In this document: in pieces, positions 16,682-61,738 of the stretch
Layout of the letters: every line of letters begins with the position of its first letter
How positions within the stretch are numbered: position 1 is the stretch's first letter
NCBI GenBank assembly: GCA_041674105.1
Contig: JBAYWK010000003.1
Location: 11,971 to 75,970, forward strand
DNA: 64,000 nucleotides
Origin: Minisyncoccota bacterium
GTDB taxonomy: Bacteria; Patescibacteriota; Minisyncoccia; Phycocordibacterales; DATDWN01
Direction: 5' to 3'
Notes under the pieces: generated by a model
Seen by the model: the letters and a program-made list of their open reading frames with translations, nothing else
What the model was told of the DNA's origin: nothing
Database searches by the model: none
Made by a program: the position numbers and the translations under genes

Positions 16682-16749
16682 ATAAGGTAGAAATCAGGTA
16701 GGGCGAAAGTCCAAAATAAAGCCTGTTTTGACAGAAAGGAAAACTGACC

Positions 16750-17424: not shown

Positions 17425-17439
17425 GTAGTTAACATTTTA

Positions 17440-17481
17440 AGACCCTCGGTCTGCTTTGGCAGACAGAGGGTCTTTTTTTGT
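17440..17481 (+). terminator. Rho-independent terminator
   Basis: AGACCCTCGGTCTGC-tttg-GCAGACAGAGGGTCT followed by TTTTTTT. Confidence 0.7.
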
Positions 17482-21893: not shown

Positions 21894-21992
21894 ATGAAAA
21901 AATTAGACCGAAGGGTTGACAAATAAGCTGATTTTGTGTAGGTTTATGGCGCTGCCCAAGAGGGCACTAGTTCAGTTCTTTGAGAGGTGCTT

Positions 21993-22787: not shown

Positions 22788-22919
22788 GGGAGAGTACCTT
22801 TCAACCAAAAGCCGTGGGTTTACACCTACGGCTTTTTTATTATTCCAAAAAAGTTTTTTAGATTCTTATACAAATTAAGAACTAAAACAATTAAGAGTTA
22901 ATATTTAATAACCACTACA

Positions 22920-23051
22920 ACAACACATTTCTGGAGCCTCCGCAGGCCTTGAGCATGGTTTCGTCAAGACACCCCGTTCTTGACGAATCAAGGCCGAGGA
23001 CAGCCAAACAAACTCGCTGGAGTTTGTGAGGGTGCGACAGAAGTGTGTTGT
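22920..23051 (+). repeat. 132-nt structured repeat element, copy 2
   Basis: Same length and orientation as 14573..14704. Terminal stem ACAACACA/TGTGTTGT (compensatory change vs copy 1). Differences cluster in loops. Confidence 0.6.
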
Positions 23052-47508: not shown

Positions 47509-48357
47509 CTAATTGCGATCGGCGTTGACAGTCAGGTTTCCCTGCTCGTCCTCATCTACCCGAAGGTTTTTGTATCCCTCCATTTTGGCGAAGACGTTAC
47601 CGTCTTTGCCAATGGTTAGTCGGAACCTTCTGGTCCGAGTTGGCGGCTGTTTCTCCGGCTCCTCGTTTTGAGGAGGAGTTACTGGAGGAGTCTGTGGTTG
47701 TACAGGTGCAACCAGTGGCATCAGTTGGACTGGAGTTGGTCGCGGTGTTAGCGGTGCCGGAGTCGGAGCAGGAGTTGGTGGAGTCGGCCTAAGAGGACGT
47801 CTACCTTCTCTCCGGTTCTGGATTACTCGGTAGACTGCGTATCCAAGCAAGGCCAGAAGAGCCATAAACAGAAGTAAGGGGATCAGAGATCCCAAAATTT
47901 CTGCAAGTCCTCCCCAGGAACGTCCCATGGCATTTTTGAAACGCCCCCATGCAGATAGTGGAGCGTGTTCATTACCAGATATATTGGAATACGTTACCGT
48001 GCTGGCGACTTCTTCCACAGGCTTTGGGACCTCCACCAACCTGTTTCCGCAGTCCGCTTTGTAGCGGATTGTGCCAGTGGTGTCCACGAGGACTATTGTG
48101 TTTGCTGGAAGTGTCTCCAGGACAAACCGTCCTTTGTTGTCGCGAAGCCCGCGGAAGTGGTTTTGAACCACAATTGCCTTCCGTAGGAAATGAGGCGCGA
48201 GCCGCATTTCGGCCTGCTGTCGTGTCGACAGCGGACCGGAAACGACGGGGAACTTGTCCATTTCAGCATCCGCTGGAATGGTGAACTCTCCACGTTGTGC
48301 GAATACTGGCAAAGCCAGCATCGCAAAAAAGATTGCAAAAAACCAAACTTTCTTCAT
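47509..48357 (-). CDS. GC-rich secreted/membrane proline-rich protein (282 aa)
   Basis: Signal peptide, a second TM, and a PTPPTPAPTPAPLTPRPTP low-complexity region. About 55% GC. Confidence 0.5.
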   Translation of the reverse strand: MKKVWFFAIFFAMLALPVFAQRGEFTIPADAEMDKFPVVSGPLSTRQQAEMRLAPHFLRKAIVVQNHFRGLRDNKGRFVLETLPANTIVLVDTTGTIRYKADCGNRLVEVPKPVEEVASTVTYSNISGNEHAPLSAWGRFKNAMGRSWGGLAEILGSLIPLLLFMALLALLGYAVYRVIQNRREGRRPLRPTPPTPAPTPAPLTPRPTPVQLMPLVAPVQPQTPPVTPPQNEEPEKQPPTRTRRFRLTIGKDGNVFAKMEGYKNLRVDEDEQGNLTVNADRN

Positions 48358-48493: not shown

Positions 48494-48565
48494 GGCCTTA
48501 TCGTCTAACGGTTAGGACGAAGCCTTCTCAAGGCTTAAATCGGGGTTCGATTCCCCGTAAGGTCA
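48494..48565 (+). tRNA. tRNA-Glu (anticodon CTC)
   Basis: Acceptor GGCCTTA/TAAGGTC, D-arm GTCT/GGAC, anticodon stem AAGCC/GGCTT with loop TTCTCAA, T-arm CGGGG-TTCGATT-CCCCG. Confidence 0.85.
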
Positions 48566-48670
48566 CAAGTAGACCCATCTTCTGATAGCTTTTGAATAAA
48601 TTCATGCAGTTGCTTGTTTTATTGTATTTTTTAAAGAAATATGACATATTTTGTGAGGAAGGAGGTTCTC

Positions 48671-49191: not shown

Positions 49192-49446
49192 ATGATCTGG
49201 CAAGATGTTGTAATGATGATCGGGCAATTTGTGTTTTTCGTTGCCATGATACCGACAGTCAAAGCTGTCGAAAAACCGGCGTTCTCAACTTCTCTGGTGA
49301 CCTCAGCGGTCATCACTCTTTATATTCCAACTCTCTGGACACTTCACCTCTATGTGTCAGTTGTTTCTACCATCCTACTCGCTTTCGCTTGGTGGACGGT
49401 GACCTACCAGAGTTGGAAGAGAAGTCAGCTGGCCGCCAACTCCTAA
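49192..49446 (+). CDS. Small membrane protein (84 aa, 2-3 TM)
   Basis: Hydrophobic, RBS GAAAGGG, GC-rich. Confidence 0.4.
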   Translation: MIWQDVVMMIGQFVFFVAMIPTVKAVEKPAFSTSLVTSAVITLYIPTLWTLHLYVSVVSTILLAFAWWTVTYQSWKRSQLAANS

Positions 49447-49512: not shown

Positions 49513-49552
49513 AAAACATCGAGGATTTTGACAGTGGGGAAATTAGGGGTAC

Positions 49553-49582
49553 TTGACTTTTGTATACAAAGTGTGCTATAAT
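49553..49582 (+). promoter_or_regulatory. Promoter module A: TTGACT-18-TATAAT with the palindrome TTGTATACAA in the spacer
   Basis: ACTTGACTTTTGTATACAAAGTGTGCTATAAT, near-identical to 50859-50890 and to the minus strand at 61339-61372. Confidence 0.6.
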
Positions 49583-49600
49583 TAAGGGTAGGAGGTGTTC

Positions 49601-49897
49601 ATGGGACAAGCAGAAGTTGATTTAAATGGTGGAGTCACCATTGTTAAAATCGGAGGGAAGCCATTCGAAACTGTCATCGATAAGCAAGGAATTCAGAGGT
49701 TTAAGACCGACAGACTGATAAACTCTTTGTATGAAATCGGTAGTATTGACCTCAATCAACTTGCGGTTCAATACCAGCGCGGGGCATTCACTCAGGAGGA
49801 ATATCTAAGGTTTTATACCGGTATCGGGTGTTCCGTGACCGGCTTATATGACCTTCCTTTTTTTCTCGATTTGGAGATCGAGAATCCGCTATGGTAA
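49601..49897 (+). CDS. Small hypothetical protein beginning MGQAEVDLNGG (98 aa)
   Basis: Strong SD GGTAGGAGGT. GC-rich. Start re-set to ATG 49601. Confidence 0.5.
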   Translation: MGQAEVDLNGGVTIVKIGGKPFETVIDKQGIQRFKTDRLINSLYEIGSIDLNQLAVQYQRGAFTQEEYLRFYTGIGCSVTGLYDLPFFLDLEIENPLW

Positions 49898-49905
49898 CCA
49901 ACCGT

Positions 49906-49942
49906 AAAACCGCTCGCGCCAAGAGGTGTCGAGCGGTTTTTT
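49906..49942 (+). terminator. Terminator module T1
   Basis: AAAACCGCTCGCGCC-aaga-GGTGTCGAGCGGTTTTTT. Near-identical to 50805..50842. Confidence 0.7.
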
Positions 49943-49990
49943 ACAAACCTAAATTTTTTTATCTTCCCTCAAATTTCACCAAAAAACCCT
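49943..49990 (+). repeat. About 45-nt cassette-junction motif, copy 1 (ACAAACCTAAATTTTTTTATCTTCCCTCAAATTTCACC...)
   Basis: Recurs at 51371..51417 with about 90% identity, each time between a terminator and the next gene's promoter. Confidence 0.45.
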
Positions 49991-50056
49991 TTACTTATTG
50001 ACTTTTATATTGTTTAAATATAGGATGTTTTACGGAGTTTTTGAAAGGAGAGCGCG

Positions 50057-50782
50057 ATGTCGCCTGAAGAAAAACAACAAGGAGATTGGTGGGGTAAGTT
50101 TTTTGGTAAAATCATCACGAGTATTATCGTCTTGCCTATCATCATGTGGATCTGGCCGGATGTAGTGCCTTTCGGATTCTTCCAGCTCTGGAAAGTCGAG
50201 GGTACAATGAGCCAGTGGCTCATTTCTTCATGGCCTATATTTGTGTGGGGAGCCGGAGTTACTCTCGTGCATGGTTTCTTCACTCGTAATGAGAGGCACA
50301 TAAATCGTAATGCAGAGCTTATAATCAAAGAAGGTGCTATTGTCAGCATCATTGCAGGGGTTGGAGAGGAGATCACTTTTAGGTGGCTATTCTTCCTTGA
50401 CAATATTGTTTCTGTAAAGATTGCAAACTGGTTCTTTTTTGGTTTTATTGGGTTTGGAATCCCAGCGTGGTTCCATATGTATATTGTTGGACCCATTGCT
50501 AACTGGTTCACTCTTGGGGAACTCGAATCTTTTATTTTCCACTCGACTGGATGGGCCGTAGGGGCAGCGATGCTCACAACGAATGCATTCTTTCGGGACG
50601 GTCATCGATATTTGGGTTTTCTAGGTTTCGTGAATAGCTGGTTTTTGGGAATGTTTCTTTTTTGGATTATGTTCAAGTACGGATTACTTGCAGCGATTCT
50701 TATTCACTTCACTTATGATTTTCTCATCTACCTCGTTCATTATGTAGATTCGGCAATCGAAAGGGCGATGGGATACGCGTAG
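50057..50782 (+). CDS. CPBP-family (CAAX protease / Abi) intramembrane metalloprotease
   Basis: Polytopic membrane protein with GEEITFRWLFF (EExxxR), FHSTGW (FxxxH) and ILIHFTYDF (HxxxD/N) motifs. Confidence 0.7.
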   Translation: MSPEEKQQGDWWGKFFGKIITSIIVLPIIMWIWPDVVPFGFFQLWKVEGTMSQWLISSWPIFVWGAGVTLVHGFFTRNERHINRNAELIIKEGAIVSIIAGVGEEITFRWLFFLDNIVSVKIANWFFFGFIGFGIPAWFHMYIVGPIANWFTLGELESFIFHSTGWAVGAAMLTTNAFFRDGHRYLGFLGFVNSWFLGMFLFWIMFKYGLLAAILIHFTYDFLIYLVHYVDSAIERAMGYA

Positions 50783-50804
50783 TACCGGCTCCTGTCAGTA
50801 ATTC

Positions 50805-50842
50805 AAAAACCGCTCGCACCAAAAGGTGCCGAGCGGTTTTTC
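50805..50842 (+). terminator. Terminator module T2
   Basis: AAAAACCGCTCGCACC-aaaa-GGTGCCGAGCGGTTTTT. Confidence 0.7.
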
Positions 50843-50860
50843 TTATATAAAAATAGACAC

Positions 50861-50890
50861 TTGACTTTCGTATACAAAATGTGCTATAAT
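50861..50890 (+). promoter_or_regulatory. Promoter module B (TTGACT-18-TATAAT, spacer palindrome TTCGTATACAAAA)
   Basis: ACTTGACTTTCGTATACAAAATGTGCTATAAT, then GTAGGAGGT SD and ATG 50911. Confidence 0.6.
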
Positions 50891-50910
50891 CAAGTGTAGG
50901 AGGTTTTTTT

Positions 50911-51318
50911 ATGTCCAACGCTCCCTTATATGAAGGGTTGGAATACAACTTGACGCTCTCTTTCAGCCACCTCTATGGTGACAAGTGGGCCGCTTTCTAT
51001 GGAAAAGAGACCCCTTACCAAAGGCGTCGGATCATCTTTCCTCAGTTCACCCCTGAGGAAGGGAAAGAGTATGCCGTGCGAGTGAAGGTAACAAAGACAG
51101 GAATCTTTACCTATAAAGGTGAAGACTTCCAAGTCTGCAGAGCCGAGCTCGCTGAGGCCGCTACCAAGGGTGAGGTTCTTGTTCATCAGATGTTTAATGG
51201 GCGAGAACCAATGACAGAGATTGGGCTAGCAATGCAAAGAGCGGGAGTTGGGAGTGCAGTCAGTACTGCTCTGGCTGACCAACTCAGGGCTGCCGGTTTC
51301 CGCCAGAGTCGGAAGTAA
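50911..51318 (+). CDS. Hypothetical protein (135 aa), GC-rich
   Basis: Driven by module B, strong SD. No recognisable motifs. Confidence 0.5.
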   Translation: MSNAPLYEGLEYNLTLSFSHLYGDKWAAFYGKETPYQRRRIIFPQFTPEEGKEYAVRVKVTKTGIFTYKGEDFQVCRAELAEAATKGEVLVHQMFNGREPMTEIGLAMQRAGVGSAVSTALADQLRAAGFRQSRK

Positions 51319-51334
51319 CACCGGACAATTTCAT

Positions 51335-51370
51335 AAGGTCGCGCGGATAATCGCGTGACCTTTTCTTTTT
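51335..51370 (+). terminator. Rho-independent terminator T3
   Basis: AAGGTCGCGCG-gataat-CGCGTGACCTT followed by TTCTTTTT. Confidence 0.7.
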
Positions 51371-51417
51371 ACAACCTAAATTTTTTATCATCCCTCAAAT
51401 TTCACCCAAGCTAATTA
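51371..51417 (+). repeat. Cassette-junction motif, copy 2 (ACAACCTAAATTTTTTATCATCCCTCAAATTTCACC...)
   Basis: See 49943..49990. Confidence 0.45.
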
Positions 51418-51429
51418 ATGAATTTCTCA

Positions 51430-51458
51430 TTGAAAAAACCCTAAAAAGGGAGTAGAGT
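51430..51458 (+). promoter_or_regulatory. Putative promoter of the MazG/DUF2075 cluster (TTGAAA-17-TAGAGT). ATG only about 12 nt downstream, so the mRNA may be near-leaderless.
   Basis: TTGAAA 51430-51435 and TAGAGT 51453-51458. No canonical SD before ATG 51470. Confidence 0.35.
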
Positions 51459-51469
51459 TATTGGTAATT

Positions 51470-51817
51470 ATGAGTAATATTAAAGATTTAACAAAAAGGA
51501 TTATAGTTTTTAGAGATGCTAGAGACTGGAAACAATTCCACAATCCAAAAGACCTCGCTTTGTCTTTGGTTTTAGAAGCAACAGAAGTCATGGAACATTT
51601 CCAATGGAAAAATAAAGAGGAGATGGAAGAACATCTAAAGACACACAAAGAAGACGTGGCAGACGAACTTGCTGATACATTATATTGGATTTTATTAATG
51701 GGAAATGATTTTAATATTGATGTTCTAAAAGCCTTAGATAAAAAACTAAAAAAAATTGAAGAAAAATATCCAGTAGAAAAAGCCAAAGGGAGGCATACTA
51801 AGTATAACAAGCTGTAA
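51470..51817 (+). CDS. MazG-like nucleoside-triphosphate pyrophosphohydrolase (small all-alpha NTP-PPase)
   Basis: FRDARDWKQFHNPKDLALSLVLEATEVMEHFQW ... ELADTLYWILLMGNDFNIDV is the MazG/YpjD-like signature. Stop 2 nt before the next gene. Confidence 0.7.
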   Translation: MSNIKDLTKRIIVFRDARDWKQFHNPKDLALSLVLEATEVMEHFQWKNKEEMEEHLKTHKEDVADELADTLYWILLMGNDFNIDVLKALDKKLKKIEEKYPVEKAKGRHTKYNKL

Positions 51818-51818
51818 C

Positions 51819-53858
51819 ATGTCTCAGATCAAATCTTTTAAATTTGATAAAAATAGCTTCAATGAAATCAGAGCCTATCGTTTTGGAAAGAATTGGCCTG
51901 TTGTTTATGTCTTGGAGAATGGTAAAGATGTTTATGTTGGTCAAGCAATAAATGCACATAGGAGACTTAAGCAACATAACGAAAATACAGAAAAACAAAT
52001 ATTGAAATTAAAAACAGCTCATATTTTAAGTGACGATGAATTCAATGTGTCGGCGGCGCTCGATATTGAGTCTTGGCTTATTCAATATATGTCTGCAGAT
52101 CAAGTTTTTACTTTGCATAATAAAAATGGTGGATTAAAAAATCACAACTATTATGATCGACCAAAATATAAAGCAAAATTCGAAGATATCTGGAAGCAAT
52201 TTTTAGAGATGGGGATTGCAAAAAGCACCCTTGAAGATTTAAAGAACACTGACTTATTTAAATATTCACCATACAAATCTCTAACAGAGGATCAGCTTTT
52301 CGTTGCTCGTAAAATTTTTAAAGATCTTAAGTTCGGAAAATCACAATCATATATTGTAAACGGTAGACCAGGAACAGGGAAAACAATTCTTGCCACTTAT
52401 CTTTTTAAATTTTTAAAAGAACAAGATGAGACGAAAAATTTGAAAATGGTACTAGTTGTACCGATGACTTCTCTTAGAACAACAATTAAAAAAGTTTTTG
52501 GGAAAATAAAAGGCCTTAGTAGTTCTATGGTGATTGGCCCAAACGACGTTGCTCGAGGTATCTACGATCTTATAATCGTTGACGAAGCTCACCGGTTACA
52601 GAGAAGAAAAAATATTATGGGTATGGGTGCGTATGATCAAGTTAATACAAGATTAGGTCTTCCAAAAGAAGCGACAAATCTGGATTGGATAATGAAATGT
52701 TCAAAAAATCAAATATTTTTCTATGACGAAAACCAAAGTATAAAACCAGCAGATGTAAGAAAAGAAGATTTTAAGAAACTTAACGCACAGTACTACACAC
52801 TTTCTACTCAAATGCGTGTTGAAGCTGGCGAAGAATATATAGAATTCATTGAAGCATTATTTGATTTGCAAAAGCCAATAAAAACAAATTTTGAAAATTA
52901 TGATTTTAAAATCTACGACAATGTAGAAGAAATGGTTTCTGCTATTAGAGAAAAAGATAAAAAGCACGGGCTTTCTCGTGTTGTTGCTGGATATGCTTGG
53001 CCTTGGCATACAAAGTCCGGATCAAAATCAAAACAAAAATATGATATTGAAATAGGAAATTATAAAGGTATTTGGAATTCTACTGCGACAGACTGGGTTA
53101 ATTCACCAAATGCTATAAATGAAGTTGGTTGCATTCATACAGTCCAAGGTTATGACTTAAATTACATTGGAGTTATTATTGGTCCAGAGTTTGGTTACGA
53201 TATAGAAAATAAAAAATTTTTTGTTGATAGAGAAAAATATCTAGACAGAAACGGCCGAGCGGGAATTCAAGATCCAAAAGAACTTGATGGTTATATAAAA
53301 AATATTTATAAGACTATTCTTACTCGTGGAATAAAAGGAACTTATGTCTATATCGTTGATGAAAATTTAAGAAAATATTTTAAAGAAAAATTGAGAGAGT
53401 CTAAGGAAGACGATATAAAATTAGATTTGAATGAGTTATATGGTGGAAAAGAAGTAGTCTCTCCTTTTACAACAGAAATGATCAGTGTACCTTTGGTAGG
53501 TTCAGCCCCATGTGGGAATCCACTTTTAGGGGAAGAGAATATCGAGGAGTATATTGAAGTTGAAAAAAATAAAATTAAACCAGGAGCAAAATATTTTATA
53601 GTTAGAGCCGAAGGCGATTCTATGAATAAAGCCGGGATTAATGATCAGGATTTAGTATTGTGTCGTTTCTCAGAAAAAGGTGAAACTGGAGATAGAGTTG
53701 TTGCTTTACTTCAGGGTGAGAATGTGACAATAAAATATTATGACAAAAAAGATGGTCGTAGAATATTACTACCAAAAAGTACAAATCCAGAACATCAGCC
53801 GATTATTCCACAAGAAGGAGATGTTGTTCAAGGAATTGTTCAAGAAGTTTTAAAATAA
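51819..53858 (+). CDS. Three-domain fusion: N-terminal GIY-YIG nuclease, central DUF2075-like P-loop ATPase/helicase, C-terminal LexA/UmuD-like S24 self-cleaving peptidase
   Basis: GIY-YIG: VVYVLENGKDVYVGQAINAHRRLKQH. Walker A NGRPGTGKT, Walker B IIVDEAHR, SRVVAGYAWPW. C-terminus PLVGSAPCGNPLL...FIVRAEGDSMNKAGINDQDLVL...VVALLQGENVTIKYY aligns with LexA/UmuD; Ser601 TCT at 53619-53621, Lys639, Cys565-Gly566 at 53511-53516. Confidence 0.75.
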   Translation: MSQIKSFKFDKNSFNEIRAYRFGKNWPVVYVLENGKDVYVGQAINAHRRLKQHNENTEKQILKLKTAHILSDDEFNVSAALDIESWLIQYMSADQVFTLHNKNGGLKNHNYYDRPKYKAKFEDIWKQFLEMGIAKSTLEDLKNTDLFKYSPYKSLTEDQLFVARKIFKDLKFGKSQSYIVNGRPGTGKTILATYLFKFLKEQDETKNLKMVLVVPMTSLRTTIKKVFGKIKGLSSSMVIGPNDVARGIYDLIIVDEAHRLQRRKNIMGMGAYDQVNTRLGLPKEATNLDWIMKCSKNQIFFYDENQSIKPADVRKEDFKKLNAQYYTLSTQMRVEAGEEYIEFIEALFDLQKPIKTNFENYDFKIYDNVEEMVSAIREKDKKHGLSRVVAGYAWPWHTKSGSKSKQKYDIEIGNYKGIWNSTATDWVNSPNAINEVGCIHTVQGYDLNYIGVIIGPEFGYDIENKKFFVDREKYLDRNGRAGIQDPKELDGYIKNIYKTILTRGIKGTYVYIVDENLRKYFKEKLRESKEDDIKLDLNELYGGKEVVSPFTTEMISVPLVGSAPCGNPLLGEENIEEYIEVEKNKIKPGAKYFIVRAEGDSMNKAGINDQDLVLCRFSEKGETGDRVVALLQGENVTIKYYDKKDGRRILLPKSTNPEHQPIIPQEGDVVQGIVQEVLK

Positions 53859-53879
53859 AGTCTGATATATAAGTTAGCC

Positions 53880-54599
53880 ATGGAAGAAAATATAATTAAA
53901 AAAGAATTTCCTGGTAATAGAAAAGATATTTCACCGCGGCATGTAGTAGATGAAAACAAAAAAGATGATTTGCAAACATTTTTTCTGATTCTTGGACTCA
54001 TTTTTAATGATTTAAAAGGGTTAATATTTTTTCAAAAAACTATAGAGGATAATTATAGAAAGCCAAATATTGATGAAACTTCTGTGCATGCCGGAGAATA
54101 TAATGGTTTGATAGCTCAAGCGGATAAATTACTTATTGCAACTGTAGGAGAATTTTTCAAATTTATTGAAAAAAATAAGTTTGTATTGAATAGCATGCCT
54201 TTTAAATTACTTCTTAAGAAAAATAATAATCAGGATTATAAAAATAAGTGGAATGATCTTGTTAGATTAGATGATGGATCTTCTATATTATCAAAAATTT
54301 CACGAGTTAGATCAAATGTAGCTTTTCATTACGATAATTCAATGGAAGAATTAAGAAGAGGTTTTATAAATAGTTTTTATTTGAAAGAAAAAGATTTAGT
54401 CCAACATAAACGAGCTTTTTATTCTTTAGGAAATGATATGGAAAATACTAGAATATATTATTCAGATGCTGCTACACAAAGTTATATAAATTCTCTTATT
54501 GGTATTGATGATAGAGAAAAAATCATGGGAGCTATAAAGAATATGAACTATACAATCCAATGGTTGTTAAAAATATATTTAGATAGTGTTAAAAAATAA
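53880..54599 (+). CDS. Hypothetical protein (239 aa), co-transcribed partner of the fusion protein
   Basis: 22-nt gap after the upstream gene, AT-rich like its neighbours. No recognisable motifs. Confidence 0.5.
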   Translation: MEENIIKKEFPGNRKDISPRHVVDENKKDDLQTFFLILGLIFNDLKGLIFFQKTIEDNYRKPNIDETSVHAGEYNGLIAQADKLLIATVGEFFKFIEKNKFVLNSMPFKLLLKKNNNQDYKNKWNDLVRLDDGSSILSKISRVRSNVAFHYDNSMEELRRGFINSFYLKEKDLVQHKRAFYSLGNDMENTRIYYSDAATQSYINSLIGIDDREKIMGAIKNMNYTIQWLLKIYLDSVKK

Positions 54600-54675
54600 T
54601 TAAGTATATAAACTAAATGTGAATTGATGAAATTCCATTTTTCACTCTTTATAAAAAGTAATGTAAAATAAATTT

Positions 54676-55107
54676 ATGAACAATAAAGATTTATATTTTG
54701 TGGCGGTAAAGGTTTTTATGGAAAAAGATGGAAAACTTTTGATTATGAAAGATAATTTTGGATGTTGGGATTTACCGGGAGGAAGAATTAAATTAGATGA
54801 ATTTGAGACATCTTTGGACGATATTATCAAAAGAAAAATGAAGGAAGAGCTGGGAGAAAATATTGAATACGAAATTGGCAAGCCTGTGATTTTTATGCGC
54901 CATGAAAGAATCGAAAGTTCGCCAGGGAATCCTACTGTTAGGATTTTTGCTGTAGGATATGAAGGAAAATTGTTGGGTGGTGAGATAAAACTTTCGGAAA
55001 GACATACCGAAATGCTTTGGGTAGATCCAGATAATTTCAAACCGGAAGATTATTTCACAGGAGGTTGGCTTAAAGGAGTAAAGGAATATTTAAATTTGAA
55101 AAAATAA
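54676..55107 (+). CDS. NUDIX hydrolase
   Basis: Nudix box GGRIKLDEFETSLDDIIKRKMKEELGENI (Gx5Ex7REUxEExGU). Confidence 0.8.
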   Translation: MNNKDLYFVAVKVFMEKDGKLLIMKDNFGCWDLPGGRIKLDEFETSLDDIIKRKMKEELGENIEYEIGKPVIFMRHERIESSPGNPTVRIFAVGYEGKLLGGEIKLSERHTEMLWVDPDNFKPEDYFTGGWLKGVKEYLNLKK

Positions 55108-55111
55108 ACCT

Positions 55112-55642
55112 ATGGAAAAGCAACCACAACAATTTGATATTGAAAATAGTCCAATGAAGGAAGCTTATAATTTGATTGGTGCAAATAGTCCTAAAGAGTT
55201 AGATAGTCTATATAATAAAGCAGACCAAGAACTGATGAAGTCAAAAGAGTGGGATTATAATAATCCCGATCTAGTTACAAATAGAATAAAAAATATTATT
55301 GAAAATATTGACAAGAATTTACTGACAGAAGAAGAAAAAGACTGGAGGCAAATGATACTTTGGTTTTGGTACCACCACGCTATGAGTGTGGCAATAGGTC
55401 TATTTGGAGATAAAGAAAAAGCAAAAGAATTTGGTGCAAAAGCAATGGAGCTTAACCCTAAAGATAACAGTAATAAAATTACTGAGATTTATTATTTGCT
55501 TTTGAATGATAATCTGGCCAAAGCAGAGGATCTAGTCGGCTCTATCCCAGAAGGACTTCTTGATGATGGAAATCCAAATCCAGAACCACAAACCGCAAGA
55601 GAACTGATTGAAGAATACAAACAAGGTTTGTTTGGGGTTTGA
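55112..55642 (+). CDS. Hypothetical protein (176 aa), 5-nt gap after NUDIX
   Basis: ORF with tight operon spacing. Acidic, predicted helical. Confidence 0.5.
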   Translation: MEKQPQQFDIENSPMKEAYNLIGANSPKELDSLYNKADQELMKSKEWDYNNPDLVTNRIKNIIENIDKNLLTEEEKDWRQMILWFWYHHAMSVAIGLFGDKEKAKEFGAKAMELNPKDNSNKITEIYYLLLNDNLAKAEDLVGSIPEGLLDDGNPNPEPQTARELIEEYKQGLFGV

Positions 55643-55681
55643 ATAAATGGAAAATTATCTAAAAAATGATATTGTGGATTT

Positions 55682-55825
55682 ATGGAAAAGGAATTAAAGA
55701 TTAAAACGCCGGACAAAAAATTGATTTATGGATCTTTTGTTTCTGCTGGTAAAAAGTCTGATAAACTTGTGATTTTTGTTCATGGATTTACTGGTCACAA
55801 AAATGAACACATATTTTTCTCCTGA
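55682..55825 (+). pseudogene. Truncated alpha/beta-hydrolase N-terminal fragment (47 codons)
   Basis: MEKELKIKTPDKKLIYGSFVSAGKKSDKLVIFVHGFTGHKNEHIFFS then stop. HGFTGH is the typical start of an alpha/beta-hydrolase fold. No catalytic core follows. Confidence 0.4.
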
Positions 55826-55980
55826 CAAGCTTTTTTGGTAGATGCTATTTGACTAAACTCTATGGTTTTTCCTTCATCAATTTTGTAATTTCCCAATAAA
55901 TTATTACAGTCAGTTGTTGCTGAAAAATGACCATCTTGTGTAAATGAGAGGACAAAATCTTCTGCTTTATTTGGTGTCAC
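55795..55980 (-). pseudogene. META (HslJ-like) domain fragment, in frame with upstream MliC but separated by two stop codons
   Basis: DCNNLLGNYKIDEGKTIEFSQIASTKKAC matches the META-domain core. GTG start. Stops at 56029-31 and 56017-19 in the shared frame. Confidence 0.4.
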
Positions 55981-56028
55981 TATTTTATTATTTGAATAAA
56001 GAGTTCTTTGGCATTACTACTCTGTATT

Positions 56029-56403
56029 CTATAGAGACATATCTAGTGTTCCTTCACCACCTTTTAAGAGTGGGGCATCTTGAAATACCATTTGACCATC
56101 TATTTCTAAACTAGCTGTTCCTTGATGTTCCCAAAAAATGACTGACTCATTGGGAGAAGTATATCTTGCTCCAGAGCCAGATATAGCTACGTTTAGTTCG
56201 TATTTTTTATTATCAAAGATAACTTCGGCTTTGCTAGAGTCGTTATTATATTGAATAGTAAATTCTTTGCCTGCATCTGCAAAAGTAAAGACATCACTTG
56301 TGTAAGCTATTTTTTCTGCATTGTTTTTTGATGTGAGCCAAAAATAGCCTGCACCTAATAAGATTATAATCACGACTGCAATAAGTAAGTTTTTTGTATT
56401 CAT
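56029..56403 (-). CDS. MliC/PliC-family lysozyme inhibitor, membrane anchored
   Basis: N-terminal TM, then ISGSGARYTSPNESVIFWEHQGTASLEIDG (SGSGARYT...FW...G signature). Confidence 0.6.
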   Translation of the reverse strand: MNTKNLLIAVVIIILLGAGYFWLTSKNNAEKIAYTSDVFTFADAGKEFTIQYNNDSSKAEVIFDNKKYELNVAISGSGARYTSPNESVIFWEHQGTASLEIDGQMVFQDAPLLKGGEGTLDMSL

Positions 56404-56533
56404 ATTTTTTGGGTTACTTATAAAGATAAGGTTAAAACCCTATGTTTCTCATTATAAGAAATATGGTCTACAATAACAAACATTTGACAAAAGCTTTAAA
56501 ATATTTAATTATTCGGTTAGAAGGAGGTGCGAG

Positions 56534-56809
56534 ATGGGACAAAATAATAATGCTTTACCATTCTCTTGGGTAAAGAACAAGTTAAAAGAGAAGAAAAACA
56601 AAGCATTGAGACTTGATAGAAACTCTAAGGAGTATATCGAGGAATGGCTAGAGATTGTTGATTTCATTAGGCGAGTCTTGGAACTTCTACCAGAGGAGAG
56701 CCAAGAGAGACGGGTGATGCTTTATGAACTTGTGACCGCTCTCGTCGAGGGGAACAAGCTAGAGGAAGCTCATGATGCTCTGGATGAGCTAAGGAGGATA
56801 AAAGGTTAG
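56534..56809 (+). CDS. Small hypothetical protein beginning MGQNNN (91 aa)
   Basis: Strong SD GAAGGAGGT. Helical, charged C-terminus. Confidence 0.45.
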   Translation: MGQNNNALPFSWVKNKLKEKKNKALRLDRNSKEYIEEWLEIVDFIRRVLELLPEESQERRVMLYELVTALVEGNKLEEAHDALDELRRIKG

Positions 56810-56849
56810 ACAAGATAGTCGGTTTGGTTTACTCTAAGAAAGGGGGAAC

Positions 56850-56942
56850 ATGAAAGGCTATGGACCGTTTTTTTGTTTCTTTTTTGGTGGCAGTGGTTTA
56901 TTTGCCATCATGATGTTTGTGACGGCTTTCAGCAAGCATTGA
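56850..56942 (+). CDS. Possible 30-aa hydrophobic peptide (not in the ORF track)
   Basis: SD AAAGGGGGA 6 nt before ATG. MKGYGPFFCFFFGGSGLFAIMMFVTAFSKH. Terminator directly downstream. Confidence 0.35.
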   Translation: MKGYGPFFCFFFGGSGLFAIMMFVTAFSKH

Positions 56943-56953
56943 AGGCCAAAACA

Positions 56954-56981
56954 GGTCGGCACGCTTTGTGCCGACCTTTTG
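56954..56981 (+). terminator. Rho-independent terminator
   Basis: GGTCGGCAC-gcttt-GTGCCGACC followed by TTTT. Confidence 0.7.
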
Positions 56982-56994
56982 TTATAATAAAAAT

Positions 56995-57693
56995 ATGAAG
57001 TCAGAAGACATTGTAAGAGATTTAAATAAATTAAAAAATAAAGAAAAAGCTAAAACTTCTTCTGGTTTCTTTAAGACAAAGAAAGGACAGTATGGGTATG
57101 GTGATAAATTTTTGGGAATCACTGTGCCAGAGCAAAGAAAAATTGCTAAAAAATATAAAGAATTAAAACTTTCTGAAATCCAAGAACTTTTAAAATCTCC
57201 TATACACGAAAACCGGTTTACCGCTTTGGAAATTTTGGTTATGAAATATGAGAACTCCCAAAATAAGGAAAAAGAAAAGATAGCTAAATTTTATTTAAAA
57301 AATACAAAAAATATAAATAATTGGGATTTGGTAGACGCATCAGCAAGCTATATTTTGGGAGATTTTTTGTATAAAAAAGACAGAGGAGTGCTTTACAAGC
57401 TAGTAAAGTCTGAAAATCTATGGGAGAGAAGAATTGCTGTAGTTTCTACATATTATTTTATAAAAAGAGGGGATTTTAAAGACATAATAAAATTGTCAGA
57501 AATTCTTTTAAAAGATAAGCACGATCTTATCCAAAAAGCTGTCGGCTGGATGCTACGCGAAGCCGGTAAGAGAGATCAAAAAGTTTTACTTTCTTTTTTA
57601 GACAAAAATCACAAAGAAATGCCTAGAACCATGCTTAGGTATTCTTTAGAAAAACTAAGTACTAAACAGAAAAATTTTTATATGAAAAAATAA
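56995..57693 (+). CDS. AlkD-like HEAT-repeat DNA alkylation-repair glycosylase family protein
   Basis: NWDLVDASASYILG and QKAVGWMLREAGKRD are characteristic of the DNA_alkylation family. Start re-set to MKSEDIV. Confidence 0.7.
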   Translation: MKSEDIVRDLNKLKNKEKAKTSSGFFKTKKGQYGYGDKFLGITVPEQRKIAKKYKELKLSEIQELLKSPIHENRFTALEILVMKYENSQNKEKEKIAKFYLKNTKNINNWDLVDASASYILGDFLYKKDRGVLYKLVKSENLWERRIAVVSTYYFIKRGDFKDIIKLSEILLKDKHDLIQKAVGWMLREAGKRDQKVLLSFLDKNHKEMPRTMLRYSLEKLSTKQKNFYMKK

Positions 57694-57743
57694 TACACAT
57701 CTTTTGTGGATAAGGATATTTAAATCGTATATACTTAAGCTGT

Positions 57744-60461
57744 ATGGAAAAGTACAATCAAAATTCTTTTAATTCTCCAGAAGATGAAATAAATTTTTTG
57801 CGAGAACAAATAGCTCAAAAAGAAAAGGAACTTTCGGAAAAAAACTATTCTGTAGATAAAAAACTTGTAGTCCAAGAACAAATTTCCAAGTACAAAAATA
57901 CTCTGTCAGAGGAGGTTTTAGATAAAGATTATAAGATTTCAGAAGACGACTTGGAGTCTTTTAAGCTCAAACTTTCTCCAGATCATCACGATAAAAAGAT
58001 AAAAGAACTTGTCGGTATTATGAATGAAAAAGGTATACACAATGCCCTTTCTGTTTTGTCTGGGTTGAAAGATCCGCATTTAGAGGACGATTTTCATAGA
58101 TTTTTAGTTCAATATTTTTCAGATGATAGGAAAGTAAAAGGTCTAAAGTCAAAAGAAGGTCTGTCTAGGGGTATAGGAATGAAACTATATGAGTTTGTAT
58201 TGCCGGACGAAGAGGAGGGTGAAAAAACAAAAACTCTAAAAGAAATAATCTCTGGTATGGAGCAGTTTTACTCTGGAATGCTTTCTATTTATTCAAAGAA
58301 ATCACAAAGTCATATCGTTATAGAGATAGCCAATGCAAATGACAGCGACCAGTTTGTTTTTTATGTGGCAGTACCAAAAGAGCACACAGACCTTTTTGAA
58401 AAACAAATAATATCTATTTTCCATAATGCCAGACTTACTGAGGTTGTGGATGATTACAATATTTTCAATGAAGATGGTATTTCTCTGGGCTCATACGCTG
58501 AGCTGAAAGAGAGTCCTGTTTATCCTATTAAAACATACGAGAATTTTGACCATGATCCAATGAATGTTATCTTGAATAGTTTCTCAAAAATAGAAAAAGA
58601 AGGAGAAGGTGCAGCATTACAAATCGTTTTGGCTCCACAAGGTGATTATTTTAATGATAAGTATTCTTTTGCTATAGACCAAATAGAAAAAGGGGCTGAT
58701 GTCAAAAAAGCAGTTTCCATGAAAGAATCTTTTGCAGGAGACCTTGGAAAAGTTTTAAAAGATTTGTTTAAAGCTCCAAAAGAAGAGGAAAAAAAAGAAA
58801 TAGATACTAATGCTATAGAAAAGATAAAAAGAAAAATAAGTGCTCCAATTTTAGCTACAAACATAAGAATCATTGCTTCAAGTAGGAATAGGTTGGGAGC
58901 GGAGAAGATCCTGAAAGAAATAGAATCTAGTTTCAACCAGTTTACTGATACAAACTCCAATGCTATAAAATGGCAAAGGCCAGAAAAAAAACCTTTGCAA
59001 AGGCTTTTTAGAGATTTTTCTTTTAGACTATATAATCCAACTCAGTTGGTTCCTCTAAATATTCACGAAATCAATACTATTTCTCATTTTCACACAACAA
59101 GGCTCTCACCAAACCCTCAACTCAGAAAAACTCAGTACGCCGAGGTTCCACCACCAAGTGAAATATCAAGTGCGGGAACTCTTTTAGGAATTAATTCCTA
59201 TAGAAATACTGACACAAAAATAAATATTTTGGATGAAGATAGGCTGAGACATTTTTATACCATTGGTCAGACGGGTACAGGAAAATCTACCCTACTAAAG
59301 AATATGATTATTCAGGATATAAAAAATGGTCACGGGGTCTGTATGATAGACCCTCATGGTATAGATATGATGGATATTATGGCCAACATTCCGAAAGATA
59401 GGTTTAATGATGTTATTTATTTTGATCCTAGTTATATAGAAAGACCTATGGCTCTAAATATGCTTGAGTACGATCCTCGTTTTCCAGAACAAAAAACTTT
59501 TGTGGTCAATGAGTTATTTAGTATTTTTCAAAAACTATATGGTGGTGCGCCAGAGTCTATGGGACCTATGTTTGAACAATATTTTAGAAACGCTACTATG
59601 CTTGTCATAGAAGATCCAGAAACAGGTTCTACTCTATTAGATGTTTCTAGGGTGATGTCCGATAAAACTTTTAGAGATCTAAAAATTTCTAGATGTAAAA
59701 ATCCTGTGGTAGTTGAGTTTTGGAAAGAAGTAGCAGAGAAAGCTGGTGGGGAAGCGACCTTAGCAAACATCGTACCGTACATCACAAGCAAGTTTGATGT
59801 CTTTTTGGCAAATGAAATAATGCGTCCGATAATTGCCCAAGAAAAGTCTTCTTTCAATTTTCGAGACATAATGGATAATAGAAAAATTCTTTTGGTAAAC
59901 CTTTCCAAAGGAAGACTTGGAGATATAAATGCAAACCTCATAGGACTTATTTTGGTCGGTAAAATACTAATGTCTGCTCTTTCTAGAGCCGATATTATTG
60001 GAAAAGATTTTCCACCGTTTTACCTTTATATAGACGAGTTTCAAAATGTAACTACAAATTCTATTTCTACTATTTTGTCTGAAGCTAGAAAATATAAACT
60101 TTCTCTAAATATTGCTCATCAGTTTATTGCGCAACTTGAAGAAGGTATAAGAGATGCTGTATTTGGGAATGTCGGCTCAATTGTTTCATTTAGGGTAGGT
60201 GCAGAAGATGCAGAGTATTTGGAAAAACAGTTTGCCCCAGTTTTTACAGCTCGCGATATTATGAATATAGACAATAGAAATGCTTATGTAAAAATGCTTA
60301 TTGCAGGTAGGCCGGCCAAAGCTTTCAATATGAAAACACTGCCTCCTCCAGAGGGAAATCCAAGTATAGTAGGTGCTCTAAAACAACTTTCCTACTTTAG
60401 TTATGGTGGAAATAAGGAAGAGATAGAAGCGGATATTTTGAAGAAATATAAGAAAAGGTAA
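57744..60461 (+). CDS. Large P-loop ATPase of the TraG/TraD/VirD4 (type IV coupling protein, TrwB/DUF87-like) type with a ~480-aa unknown N-terminal region
   Basis: Walker A FYTIGQTGTGKST, Walker B YLYIDEFQNV, and a C-terminal ARKYKLSLNIAHQFIAQL motif like TraG-D_C. Confidence 0.55.
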   Translation: MEKYNQNSFNSPEDEINFLREQIAQKEKELSEKNYSVDKKLVVQEQISKYKNTLSEEVLDKDYKISEDDLESFKLKLSPDHHDKKIKELVGIMNEKGIHNALSVLSGLKDPHLEDDFHRFLVQYFSDDRKVKGLKSKEGLSRGIGMKLYEFVLPDEEEGEKTKTLKEIISGMEQFYSGMLSIYSKKSQSHIVIEIANANDSDQFVFYVAVPKEHTDLFEKQIISIFHNARLTEVVDDYNIFNEDGISLGSYAELKESPVYPIKTYENFDHDPMNVILNSFSKIEKEGEGAALQIVLAPQGDYFNDKYSFAIDQIEKGADVKKAVSMKESFAGDLGKVLKDLFKAPKEEEKKEIDTNAIEKIKRKISAPILATNIRIIASSRNRLGAEKILKEIESSFNQFTDTNSNAIKWQRPEKKPLQRLFRDFSFRLYNPTQLVPLNIHEINTISHFHTTRLSPNPQLRKTQYAEVPPPSEISSAGTLLGINSYRNTDTKINILDEDRLRHFYTIGQTGTGKSTLLKNMIIQDIKNGHGVCMIDPHGIDMMDIMANIPKDRFNDVIYFDPSYIERPMALNMLEYDPRFPEQKTFVVNELFSIFQKLYGGAPESMGPMFEQYFRNATMLVIEDPETGSTLLDVSRVMSDKTFRDLKISRCKNPVVVEFWKEVAEKAGGEATLANIVPYITSKFDVFLANEIMRPIIAQEKSSFNFRDIMDNRKILLVNLSKGRLGDINANLIGLILVGKILMSALSRADIIGKDFPPFYLYIDEFQNVTTNSISTILSEARKYKLSLNIAHQFIAQLEEGIRDAVFGNVGSIVSFRVGAEDAEYLEKQFAPVFTARDIMNIDNRNAYVKMLIAGRPAKAFNMKTLPPPEGNPSIVGALKQLSYFSYGGNKEEIEADILKKYKKR

Positions 60462-60539
60462 AAGTGTCAAAGACCGTCTCTGACACTGTACTTGATTTTT
60501 TATGGTTTTTGGTGTTTAATTTGTTTCGGAGGGAAGATC

Positions 60540-60932
60540 ATGAGTCAGTCAGACAGGGAGATTCTAAGGCAATTAAGTCTTAGTCAGGCCAATTTAGCTA
60601 GAATTATTGGCACAAGTAGACAAGCGGTTAATGCTGGTATTAAAAAGGAAACTGATTATATAACGAGTTCAGTCGTTCTGATGATACATAAGGTTTTTGT
60701 ATTAGATGATGATCCAAGAAAATCTGTAGCAGAACAGATATTGCGTGATTTATTTTCTGTAAATGTTGAGTCTAATTTTTTAGTTACAGACCTTTTGGGT
60801 ATTAATTTAGATACAGAAAAAATTCAGTTAATACTAAACAATAAAGCTCTAAGAGATTCTTTGAGAGATAAAATTTCTCAGGTAATAAATAATTATTGCG
60901 ATAATTTCAAGAATTTTTTTGACACGCAATAA
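60540..60932 (+). CDS. XRE-like helix-turn-helix transcriptional regulator
   Basis: LSQANLARIIGTSRQAVNAGIKKE HTH. RBS GGAGGG. Start re-set to MSQSDRE. Confidence 0.6.
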   Translation: MSQSDREILRQLSLSQANLARIIGTSRQAVNAGIKKETDYITSSVVLMIHKVFVLDDDPRKSVAEQILRDLFSVNVESNFLVTDLLGINLDTEKIQLILNNKALRDSLRDKISQVINNYCDNFKNFFDTQ

Positions 60933-60937
60933 TCTTA

Positions 60938-60964
60938 AAACCGTCTTGAAAAAGACGGTTTTTC
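60938..60964 (+). terminator. Rho-independent terminator
   Basis: AAACCGTCTT-gaaa-AAGACGGTTT followed by TTTC. Confidence 0.75.
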
Positions 60965-61008
60965 TATGCAAGAATTTACTACAATATATTGTAGTAAAAA
61001 ATTTAGGT

Positions 61009-61042
61009 ATAAAAAAAGAGGTAACCGAAAACGTTGGTTACC
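61009..61042 (-). terminator. Terminator for the 61049..61321 minus-strand gene
   Basis: Minus strand: GGTAACC-aacgttttc-GGTTACC followed by TCTTTTTTTAT. Confidence 0.65.
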
Positions 61043-61048
61043 CCTGTC

Positions 61049-61321
61049 CTAGTCACGGTCTCCACGGGGGAGTCCGGCGTACATTGGGGTGTTTACATTT
61101 GGTATAACCCCTGTATGGCTTTTCTTTTTCCGTCTCGAGATTTCTCCCAAAACGGACTTTGTGAAAGAGTTGGCTTCATCCTGTCCAACTTCTTGGACGG
61201 AGAAGCTGTATGTCAGTTCCCACATCTCTAGTTTGGTTAGAGGAACACCGATTTCTCGGCACTTTTCCAAAACTTGAGATTTTACAATCTGGACCCTACG
61301 GGCCCATTCGTTTCTGTCCAT
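61049..61321 (-). CDS. Hypothetical protein (90 aa), GC-rich, driven by promoter module D
   Basis: SD AGGAGG before ATG (MDRNEWARR...). No recognisable motifs. Confidence 0.5.
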   Translation of the reverse strand: MDRNEWARRVQIVKSQVLEKCREIGVPLTKLEMWELTYSFSVQEVGQDEANSFTKSVLGEISRRKKKSHTGVIPNVNTPMYAGLPRGDRD

Positions 61322-61338
61322 TTGTCCTCCTATTATAT

Positions 61339-61368
61339 ATTATATCATACTTTGTATATAAAAGTCAA
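61339..61368 (-). promoter_or_regulatory. Promoter module D (minus strand): TTGACT-TTTATATACAAAGTATGA-TATAAT
   Basis: Reverse complement of 61339-61372 is AACTTGACTTTTATATACAAAGTATGATATAAT. Third copy of the island promoter module. Confidence 0.5.
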
Positions 61369-61404
61369 GTTATCCACAATTTTATAGGTAATTTAATCAA
61401 ATTA

Positions 61405-61432
61405 TTGATTTTTACAAAATTAATTGTATTAT
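61405..61432 (+). promoter_or_regulatory. Promoter (TTGATT-16-TATTAT) for the MGQA paralog, divergent from module D
   Basis: Followed by GGCAGGAGGTTTTTATGGGACAAGCAG, which matches module A from the SD through codon 4. Confidence 0.45.
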
Positions 61433-61450
61433 GGGTGGCAGGAGGTTTTT

Positions 61451-61738
61451 ATGGGACAAGCAGGTGTTGAACATGGAGTTACTATGCTATCGAATGCTAT
61501 CTTGTATCAGAGAATTGAAAAAATTATTTCTTTGATTCCAGACGACTTCGGTAATAAGGAGATCATTGTAAAATCTCTTAAAGGAATCCAAGATTCTTTG
61601 CCGTTTACGGCTCCTGGAGCTATAAACACGAGATGGTTTCAGGTATCAGGAGTTTTGGAGGTAAATCTTCCAGATCCAGACACAGCTCCTTGGGCAATGG
61701 AGATTGCAAAGATCTTTGCTGAGGATTTTGAAGAATGA
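61451..61738 (+). CDS. Small hypothetical protein beginning MGQAGVEHG (95 aa)
   Basis: Shares SD + ATGGGACAAGCAG with the 49601 gene but is otherwise dissimilar. GC-rich. Confidence 0.5.
   Translation: MGQAGVEHGVTMLSNAILYQRIEKIISLIPDDFGNKEIIVKSLKGIQDSLPFTAPGAINTRWFQVSGVLEVNLPDPDTAPWAMEIAKIFAEDFEE

Follow-up and report, generated by a model that had tools for sequence, protein, structure and literature searches.

In a 64-kb stretch of DNA from an uncultured Minisyncoccota bacterium (assembly GCA_041674105.1, contig JBAYWK010000003.1, positions 11,971 to 75,970; hereafter, the window), we identified a short promoter module that is repeated upstream of three mutually unrelated, GC-rich small genes, together with terminators, post-terminator sequences and start regions that are likewise reused between genes. 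We consider it moderately probable that these genes are acquired and form self-contained expression cassettes, with regulatory modules that recombination has copied. The host belongs to the candidate phyla radiation (Patescibacteria) and has a small, AT-rich genome. Promoter modules are designated P, terminators T, post-terminator motifs J and the genes A to E; L-numbers (L003, L004, L010 ... L032) denote loci or contigs of other genomes and metagenomes that were used for comparison. All repeat counts, promoter scans and composition figures refer to the 64-kb window.

A promoter module upstream of genes A, C and D

The module consists of TTGACT, an 18-nt spacer and TRTGn-TATAAT. The corresponding 30-nt pattern was found three times, at 49553-49582 and 50861-50890 on the plus strand and at 61339-61368 on the minus strand, upstream of genes A, C and D, respectively, against 0.00 sites expected from 100 shuffles of the sequence; a looser pattern returned the same three sites against 0.04 expected. 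These are, within 1 nt, the sites at which a sequence-only reading of the window had placed three copies of a promoter. P1 (49551..49599, plus strand) comprises AC-TTGACT, the 18-nt spacer, TGTGC-TATAAT and the Shine-Dalgarno (SD) sequence GTAGGAGGT, P2 (50859..50907, plus strand) comprises the promoter module and its SD, and P3 (61326..61370, minus strand) the promoter module with the SD TAGGAGG. A repeat finder independently recovered all three pairs, with identities of 90% for P1/P2 over 49 nt, SD included, and of 82% for P1/P3 and 78% for P2/P3, each over 45 nt; it also recovered the T1/T2 and J1/J2 repeats described below. The edges of the module, which the sequence-only reading had proposed to define by alignment, are sharp: similarity starts 1-2 nt before the -35 element (at about -37) and stops just past the SD, and the flanks share neither similarity nor inverted repeats.

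In a sigma-70 scan of the window, P1, P2 and P3 ranked among the top five sites, and a common spacer was seen in these three alone. Each contains the -35 element, the 18-nt spacer, the TGn and the -10 element, with 11 of the 12 hexamer positions matching the sigma-70 consensus in addition to the TG extension. The other consensus-grade promoters, located at 16653-16682 and near 25873 (minus strand), have spacers unrelated to the module. Moreover, the predicted promoter of gene B (49998-50026, plus strand; TTGACT, 17-nt spacer, TAGGAT) is a partial fourth copy, whose first 13 nt, TTGACTTTTATAT (49998-50010), are those with which P3 starts. This 13-mer is present at four sites in the window, against 0.05 expected.

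The spacer also contains a 12-bp dyad, which reads TTTGTATACAAA in P1, TTCGTATACAAA in P2 and TTTATATACAAA in P3. A perfect palindrome common to all copies had been described; this holds for P1, whereas P2 and P3 have one mismatch each, both on the left arm.

Terminators and a common post-terminator motif

Intrinsic terminators were predicted downstream of all four genes: T1 behind A (49906..49941, plus strand; -23.9 kcal/mol, z-score -5.6), T2 behind B (50806..50841, plus strand; -25 kcal/mol, z -7.5), T3 behind C (51335..51372, plus strand; -19.1 kcal/mol, z -6.2) and T4 behind D (61011..61045, minus strand; z -4.1), the last of which is kept in relatives. All four fold far better than shuffled controls. 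T2 is a copy of T1, with 92% identity over 36 nt in the repeat finder, whereas T3 is unrelated to both in sequence. T1 and T2 differ at three positions: one turns a G-U pair into A-U, and the others lie in the loop and in a bulge, so that the hairpin is kept.

T1 is followed by the motif J1 (49943..49983, plus strand; ACAAACCTAAATTTTTTTATCTTCCCTCAAATTTCACC), a copy of which, J2 (51371..51409, plus strand), follows T3. Over 47 nt the two are 79% identical when aligned ungapped and about 92% identical when two 1-nt gaps are introduced. Both repeats had been noticed from the sequence, the terminator at 49906 and 50805 and the junction motif at 49943 and 51371, and both stand, with the second terminator starting at 50806. 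An exact 13-mer, ACCTAAATTTTTT, has three occurrences in the window, solely just after the terminators of A, C and D; the third, J3 (60996..61008, minus strand), lies directly behind T4. All the genes that are preceded by the promoter module thus carry a common 3' mark as well as a common 5' mark. Among relatives, J3 is present in L027, is replaced by ATTTAAATTTTTT in L025 and is lacking in L026.

A start module shared by genes A and E

The reuse of sequence extends into coding regions. The combination GGAGGT-N4-ATGGGACAA occurs twice in the window, where none is expected, at the starts of gene A and of gene E (61441..61738, plus strand; 95 aa; GGAGGT-N4-ATGGGACAAGCAG), and the SD and first codons of these genes match at 27 of 31 nt. 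The proteins are otherwise dissimilar, which bears out the earlier observation that the genes at 49601 and 61451 join a common SD and MGQA start to unrelated products. Among relatives, E is well conserved only at its N-terminus, M(G/E)QAGV(E/D), and the remainder evolves fast. The sequence ATGGGACAA itself is found three times in the 64 kb, each time at an SD-led start (49601, 56534 and 61451). The third copy, GGAGGT-N5-ATGGGACAA, belongs to a 91-aa gene (MGQN...; 56523..56809, plus strand) whose GC content at third codon positions (GC3) is 0.46. The same pattern had been proposed for the genes at 56534 and 48671; it is present at the former, but the latter (MGEQ) shares only ATGGG and has a native-like GC3 of 0.27.

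The surroundings of the 91-aa gene contain some further small features. It is followed by a conserved open reading frame (ORF) that encodes a hydrophobic peptide, about 30 aa long (56850-56942; MKGYGPFFCFFFGG... in the window), and a counterpart peptide (MGGYRPFFLFFFLS...) follows a 94-aa gene in L025 (13870-13960, minus strand). The start region of the L025 peptide, GGAGGCGAGATGGGA, resembles the GGAGGTGCGAGATGGGA found at the 91-aa gene in the window, a further hint of start-region reuse. Additionally, upstream of the L025 counterpart of the 91-aa gene there is a promoter-like site followed by about 200 nt of GC-rich, ORF-less sequence and a terminator (14350-14560, minus strand). This element is absent from the window and has no Rfam match; it may be a small RNA.

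The genes of the cassettes

The GC contents of A (0.43), C (0.51) and D (0.47) exceed that of the window (about 0.33), as had been noted for the small genes behind the module, and the GC3 of A to D is 0.45-0.53, compared with 0.15-0.29 in native genes. In an all-against-all BLASTP search of the proteins of the region no pair had an E value below 0.08. Genes A, C and D are mutually unrelated, as are the genes that precede them, and A, C, D and E, likewise mutually dissimilar, have no Pfam, PHROG or PADLOC match. A defence role for A, C and D was rejected, as no PADLOC match was obtained.

Gene A (49601..49897, plus strand; 98 aa; GC3 0.45) belongs to a widespread family of uncharacterised small proteins. 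A word-indexed search returned A alone, as expected of an orphan or de novo gene, but a full HMMER search recovered 287 representative clusters, and that origin was rejected. Homology covers residues ~10-98; residues 1-9 (MGQAEVDLN) lie outside the family domain. The structure model is confident (predicted local distance difference test, pLDDT, 91) except that the N-terminus (first ~9 residues) is modelled as disordered, and despite this confidence no fold match was found in the PDB. Ralstonia phage phiRSL1 and a 169-kb viral contig of IMG/VR encode relatives of A, and its fold matches four uncharacterised phage proteins in BFVD, a library of predicted viral structures. Judged by its parts, A looks like a mosaic of five pieces: a C-like promoter, an E-like start, a family domain found in phages, a B-like terminator and a C-like tail.

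Gene B (50057..50782, plus strand; SD AAAGGAG; GC3 0.47) encodes a 241-aa membrane protein that weakly matches the CPBP/Rce1-like family (PF02517, E 5.6e-4, which misses the curated cut-off).

Gene C (50911..51318, plus strand; 135 aa; GC3 0.53) belongs to a small family of 10 proteins, the nine homologues being 53-65% identical to it. No Pfam, PHROG, PDB or viral match was found for C, and its structure model is poor (pLDDT 54). In the six contigs that were read, the orthologues lie in different neighbourhoods, none of the neighbours being related to any gene of the present region, and each is a stand-alone unit composed of a TTGAC(T/A) ... TGn TA..AT promoter, a TAGGAGG SD, the gene and a terminator. 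The orthologues are GC-richer than their contig in every case (about 0.50-0.55 for the gene and 0.39-0.44 for the locus). Diverged but alignable P2-like promoters precede the orthologues in L022, L024, L028, L029 and L032, and those of L024 (TTGACA-TAAGTATATAACATGTTG-TATTAT), L028 and L029 (TTGACA-TAAGTATATATTATGTTG-TACTAT) align with P2 position by position. Since the orthologues elsewhere carry diverged versions of the same promoter, P2 is probably the ancestral promoter of the C cassette and P1 a copy that arose locally in front of A.

Gene D (61049-61321, minus strand; 90 aa; GC3 0.49) was found in four genomes only, that of the window and those of three close relatives (4 proteins). The strong conservation of D, similar in all six reading frames, raised the suspicion that the GC-rich 'genes' were structured non-coding RNAs, which was rejected because no Rfam match was found and because third-codon-position changes dominate every pairwise comparison among the four genomes. 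This substitution pattern indicates that D is a genuine coding gene under purifying selection. Its GC3 is 0.46-0.49 in all four genomes, which have diverged to about 76% nucleotide identity.

Taken together, proteins A, C and D are unrelated and yet have related flanks at both ends, and the family homology of A begins only at about residue 10. The sequence-only reading, which had described modular cassettes with promoter, 5' coding and terminator modules shuffled between unrelated genes, is upheld in this respect.

Two classes of genes in one genome

A crude gene call of the window was used to compare the cassettes with the remaining genes, taking a match at 4 or more of 6 positions as an SD. 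Fifty-four genes fall into a low-GC3 class (GC3 0.15-0.37, most 0.15-0.29). An SD match was found for all nine genes with a GC3 of at least 0.4, compared with 10 of the 54 genes with lower GC3 (p = 4e-6), and the GC3-rich genes also have strong predicted promoters and intrinsic terminators. Conversely, a -10-like hexamer ends 6-11 nt before the ATG in 21 of 51 low-GC3 genes, an arrangement that is the signature of leaderless transcripts; examples of such SD-less starts with a proximal -10 box are those at 8905, 17527, 19737, 25973, 33416 and 56995. The native genes thus seem mostly to lack an SD and to be transcribed as leaderless mRNAs, with the canonical GGAGG confined to a minority of genes. 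The contrasts in GC3, SD and -10 position set the cassettes apart from native genes by composition, by translation signal and by the architecture of their transcripts. The module is accordingly not the organism's generic promoter, as most native genes are SD-less and have their -10 box 6-11 nt ahead of the ATG; a generic strong promoter had been named beforehand as the finding that would speak against a cassette-like island.

Other GC-rich units are present in the window. The one at 16653-17478 is a single-gene unit with a perfect TTGACA-18-TATAAT promoter, a leader of about 68 nt, an ORF of 224 aa (16750-17424) and a strong terminator, and that at 21900-22840 encodes a 264-aa secreted protein with a PEP-CTERM tail (gene 21993-22787) and has its own terminator. 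The promoters of both are unrelated to the module, and the cassette habit is therefore wider than this promoter family. A 130-nt GC-rich direct repeat, 92% identical between its intergenic copies at 14574-14703 and 22921-23050, has a long, closed predicted fold with several stems (z -4.2 and -7.0) and no Rfam match; an unclassified small RNA and a miniature mobile element are both conceivable.

The module in related and distant lineages

The closest comparison is offered by a metagenome-assembled genome labelled Saccharibacteria (L003/L025), which is about 76% identical to the window over the right half of the region. In its assembly no C orthologue was found, and a word-index search returned no match to A. 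The D-E pair lies beside YqeY in L025, L026 and L027; L025 and L027, unlike L026, also have an ATPase resembling type IV secretion system coupling proteins on the far side of D. The core of P3 is identical in L025 and L027 and differs by a single C-to-T change in L026.

A 22-base version of the pattern was found in seven loci when one genome per species was searched and in 12 loci of the JGI metagenomes. Many of these matches are probably due to chance or represent ordinary strong promoters in AT-rich DNA. In L004, L011/L019 and L014/L018, positions that the pattern leaves free, namely GTGTGC and the AC or GTAC before the -35 element, also match P1. In L004, assigned to Nomurabacteria, the same 32-mer precedes a single GC-rich gene (GC3 0.58, compared with 0.25-0.28 in its neighbours) that has a terminator on each side. 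In the four metagenome contigs L011/L019 and L014/L018, which form two orthologous groups, it precedes an ABC-transporter gene of no unusual composition. In all these cases the similarity stops exactly at the promoter edges. Searches of viral contigs and of phage and plasmid records did not return the promoter, and an origin from a known vector, plasmid or phage promoter was rejected for want of matches. In a contig of 24% GC, the 20-mer ACTTGACTTTTATATACAAA precedes an rpmH-like gene (MKMTYQPKNRQRK...).

Across lineages, horizontal spread of the promoter and convergence do not appear separable from these alignments. Within the window, descent is the only reasonable reading, because the common stretches include non-functional positions and 3' elements.

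Origin of the cassettes and alternative explanations

We propose that the small GC-richer genes were probably acquired horizontally and have been kept as self-contained expression units. Each unit would consist of a near-consensus sigma-70 extended -10 promoter, a leader of ~11-13 nt with a canonical GGAGG, the ORF, and a strong intrinsic terminator with the tail ACCTAAATTTTTT, and the likely effect would be strong, insulated transcription that is independent of the neighbours, combined with SD-dependent translation of each gene. P2 probably arrived with gene C, and P1 would be a local copy that now drives A, whose SD and first ~8 codons would have been copied from those of E or have a common source with them. 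T1/T2 and J1/J2 would likewise be copies, the regulatory pieces being related by descent; in D both flanks, 5' and 3', would stem from an older copy, and B would have a partial copy. The copying presumably proceeded by recombination between short homologous or micro-homologous flanks.

Several points weigh against this proposal. The part of the genome that was searched amounts to 64 kb. Promoter strength, transcription starts and termination are predictions from consensus matches. The copies are only 36-49 nt long, so that the direction and mechanism of copying would not be provable from them. Neither a donor nor an integrase or phage structural gene can be seen at 47-64 kb, and no attachment (att) repeat of the tRNA-Glu gene that adjoins the A-B-C island (48494-48566), nor a second copy of its 3' end, was found anywhere in the window. 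The 20-mer ACTTGACTTTTATATACAAA also occurs in unrelated contigs (L010, 592-621; L020, 284-313), and some of the similarity between lineages may be convergence on an unusually good promoter. Finally, the steady GC3 of D would be explained by selection on composition or codon use no less well than by recent acquisition.

We regard as very improbable an explanation by convergence alone, in which each promoter would have approached the optimum of the host RNA polymerase independently and no DNA would have been copied. It is true that 16-17 of the 30 promoter positions belong to consensus elements (TTGAC, TRTG, TATAAT), that similar 30-mers precede unrelated genes in Clostridia, Helicobacter and other contigs, and that the similarity between lineages ends at the functional edges of the promoter. 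The identity, however, includes non-consensus spacer bases and, between P1 and P2, also the stretch from the -10 element to the SD. Elements without a role in promotion are shared as well, as illustrated by T1/T2, J1/J2 and the 13-mer behind A, C and D, and the two other consensus-grade promoters reached a comparable score with unrelated spacers. An extremely improbable explanation is a dedicated mobile system, such as integron-like cassettes, a fragment of a miniature inverted-repeat transposable element (MITE) or insertion sequence (IS) with an outward promoter, or a prophage with true morons, of which the modules would be the recombination or transposition ends. The common 5' and 3' ends, the bulged hairpins of T1 and T2, the position of the island next to tRNA-Glu and the occurrence of the family of A in phages could all be read in this sense. 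Nevertheless, among the 20 proteins at 47-64 kb that were scanned with Pfam none matched a recombinase, transposase or phage structural family, and PHROGs, run on 10 of these, gave one weak match, to a head-scaffolding family (E 0.0057) for a 139-aa zinc-ribbon protein. Each cassette has a promoter of its own, the hairpins are devoid of attC core sites, the modules are bordered neither by terminal inverted repeats nor by target duplications, and the promoter is missing from the viral, phage and plasmid records searched. The absence of any attC-like core or recombinase family at 47-64 kb agrees with what had been stated from the sequence. A prophage island with its att site at tRNA-Glu was also rejected, as there is neither a second tRNA 3' end nor any convincing phage gene.

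A further explanation concerns the spacer. The 12-bp dyad TTTGTATACAAA could be an operator bound by one repressor that co-regulates A, C, D and perhaps B, and the product of a helix-turn-helix (HTH) gene at 60540..60932 (plus strand; 130 aa) had been put forward as the candidate. The dyad lies exactly between the -35 element and TRTGn, so that almost every base of the 32-mer would be constrained, which would explain the identical spacer in the distant lineages L004, L011/L019 and L014/L018. Dyad sites with at most one mismatch number four in the window against 0.53 expected, three of them being the promoters; the C-to-T change in L026 turns TTTATATACAAA into the perfect palindrome TTTATATATAAA; and the HTH gene adjoins D both in the window and in L026. 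We nevertheless consider the operator unlikely. Of the three copies only that in P1 is a perfect dyad, the homologous promoters of the C orthologues have not kept it, and near-palindromic AT-rich spacers often arise by chance. As for the candidate, its assignment is weak (Pfam E 0.005, PHROG E 0.0015), and the segment 60464-60972, which comprises the gene with its promoter and terminator, is a clean indel: two of the three related loci, L025 and L027, lack it and yet have an unaltered P3. L026 has the HTH gene, 78% identical at the protein level, and has kept the gene's promoter (GTACTTGATTTTTT...GGTGTTTAAT), but no dyad was found at this promoter. Together these observations speak against the HTH protein as an obligate repressor and weaken the operator idea in general. 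A shared operator bound by this protein is not supported in the form proposed; some other regulator might conceivably act on the dyad. A more far-reaching idea, which we think quite unlikely, combines copying with regulation: a unit of 32-35 nt, (GT)ACTTGACTTTT(G/A)TATACAAAGTGTGCTATAAT, would be a portable promoter-plus-operator that circulates in the mobile gene pool of the candidate phyla radiation under a conserved repressor, riding with GC-rich, SD-led accessory genes into otherwise leaderless genomes, while the swapping of MGQA... starts would create chimeric N-termini.

Genomic setting

The cassettes, which in our reading are acquired expression units, are scattered over a variable, accessory part of the genome and are flanked by core or defence-like genes. 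The stretch 47.5-51.4 kb has a GC content of 42-53%. The tRNA-Glu gene is flanked by two further GC-rich genes, encoding a 282-aa secreted, proline-rich, membrane-anchored protein (47509-48357, minus strand; GC 0.53) and an 84-aa membrane protein (49192-49446; GC3 0.55), which form with A-C a 4-kb block of atypical composition. The adjacent 51.4-55 kb, where defence-like genes are located, differs between the window genome and the relative of about 76% identity. At 51470-53858 a gene for a MazG-like pyrophosphohydrolase is followed by one for a 679-aa fusion of a GIY-YIG nuclease, a Schlafen-type helicase and a LexA-like S24 peptidase domain, with Nhi/AbiO-like PADLOC matches. This pair resembles a defence module; in the closest relative, a type I restriction subunit and an HNH gene occupy this place.

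Significance and comparison with known systems

The reuse of promoters and terminators on acquired genes is a known kind of event, and no new type of genetic element comes to light. The region offers a compact, well-delimited example of how acquired genes may be expressed in a reduced genome, with promoter, ribosome-binding site, first codons and terminator reused as short modules, and it supplies candidate strong promoter and terminator parts for organisms that lack genetic tools. Two features deserve mention: the two-class gene architecture and the presence of the same promoter with a GC-rich cassette in another lineage of the candidate phyla radiation. Leaderless, SD-less native genes stand here beside SD-led accessory genes bracketed by promoters and terminators, that is, two expression designs in one genome, and the contrast between the classes could help to flag horizontally acquired genes and to improve the prediction of gene starts in these organisms.

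Gram-positive-type sigma-A promoters with an extended -10 element (the '-16 region', TRTGn) have a TTGACT -35 element, TRTG just upstream of TATAAT and a spacer of 17-18 nt. The module shares all of these features, from which its activity is predicted, but its spacer adds a 12-bp near-dyad that lies outside that consensus. A MITE or IS fragment with an outward promoter differs from the module, which has no inverted repeats at its flanks and is present in 3-4 copies in 64 kb. With integron cassettes the units have in common that they are small, carry single genes of unrelated functions, lie in a variable region and end in a recurring structured 3' element. Unlike integron cassettes, each has its own near-consensus promoter; no integrase or tyrosine recombinase was found at 47-64 kb, nor any attI or Pc; T1-T4 and J1-J3 lack the attC cores (RYYYAAC ... 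GTTRRRY), and the hairpins, of the form AAAACC...GGTTTT, are ordinary intrinsic terminators followed by T-runs.

The resemblance to phage morons is closer. A single gene is combined with its own promoter and intrinsic terminator, as predicted by the promoter scan and hairpin folding, its composition differs from that of the neighbours, its function is accessory or unknown, and the family of A occurs in large phages. On the other hand, no convincing structural, lysis or integrase family was found at 47-64 kb with Pfam and PHROG and no prophage is visible, and D and E are stably inherited between core genes in the window genome and three related loci.

Putative mobile promoters, described by Matus-Garcia, Nijveen and van Passel (2012; PMC3488235; see also PMC3575422), are non-coding promoter sequences of high similarity that precede non-homologous genes in one genome. 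They were defined as stretches of > 50 nt with at least 80% identity and unrelated flanking genes; two-copy families have about 92% identity, families of 2-3 copies were proposed to originate from duplication by homologous or non-homologous recombination, and some families are common to distant genera (PMC3488235). The family described here is similarly small, its P1/P2 pair is 90% identical and the genes both downstream and upstream are non-homologous, and the sharing across genera appears to hold as well. The identity threshold is reached by P1/P2 and P1/P3, whereas the copies, at 45-49 nt, are too short by about 1-6 nt. What differs is that terminators, the post-terminator motif and first codons are reused too, that is, whole cassette flanks, and that the module stands out, in its candidate-phyla-radiation host, against native genes that lack an SD. 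Promoter reuse of the putative mobile promoter type is thus the closest described phenomenon, and the units, as judged from their predicted signals, would work like phage morons and not like integron cassettes.

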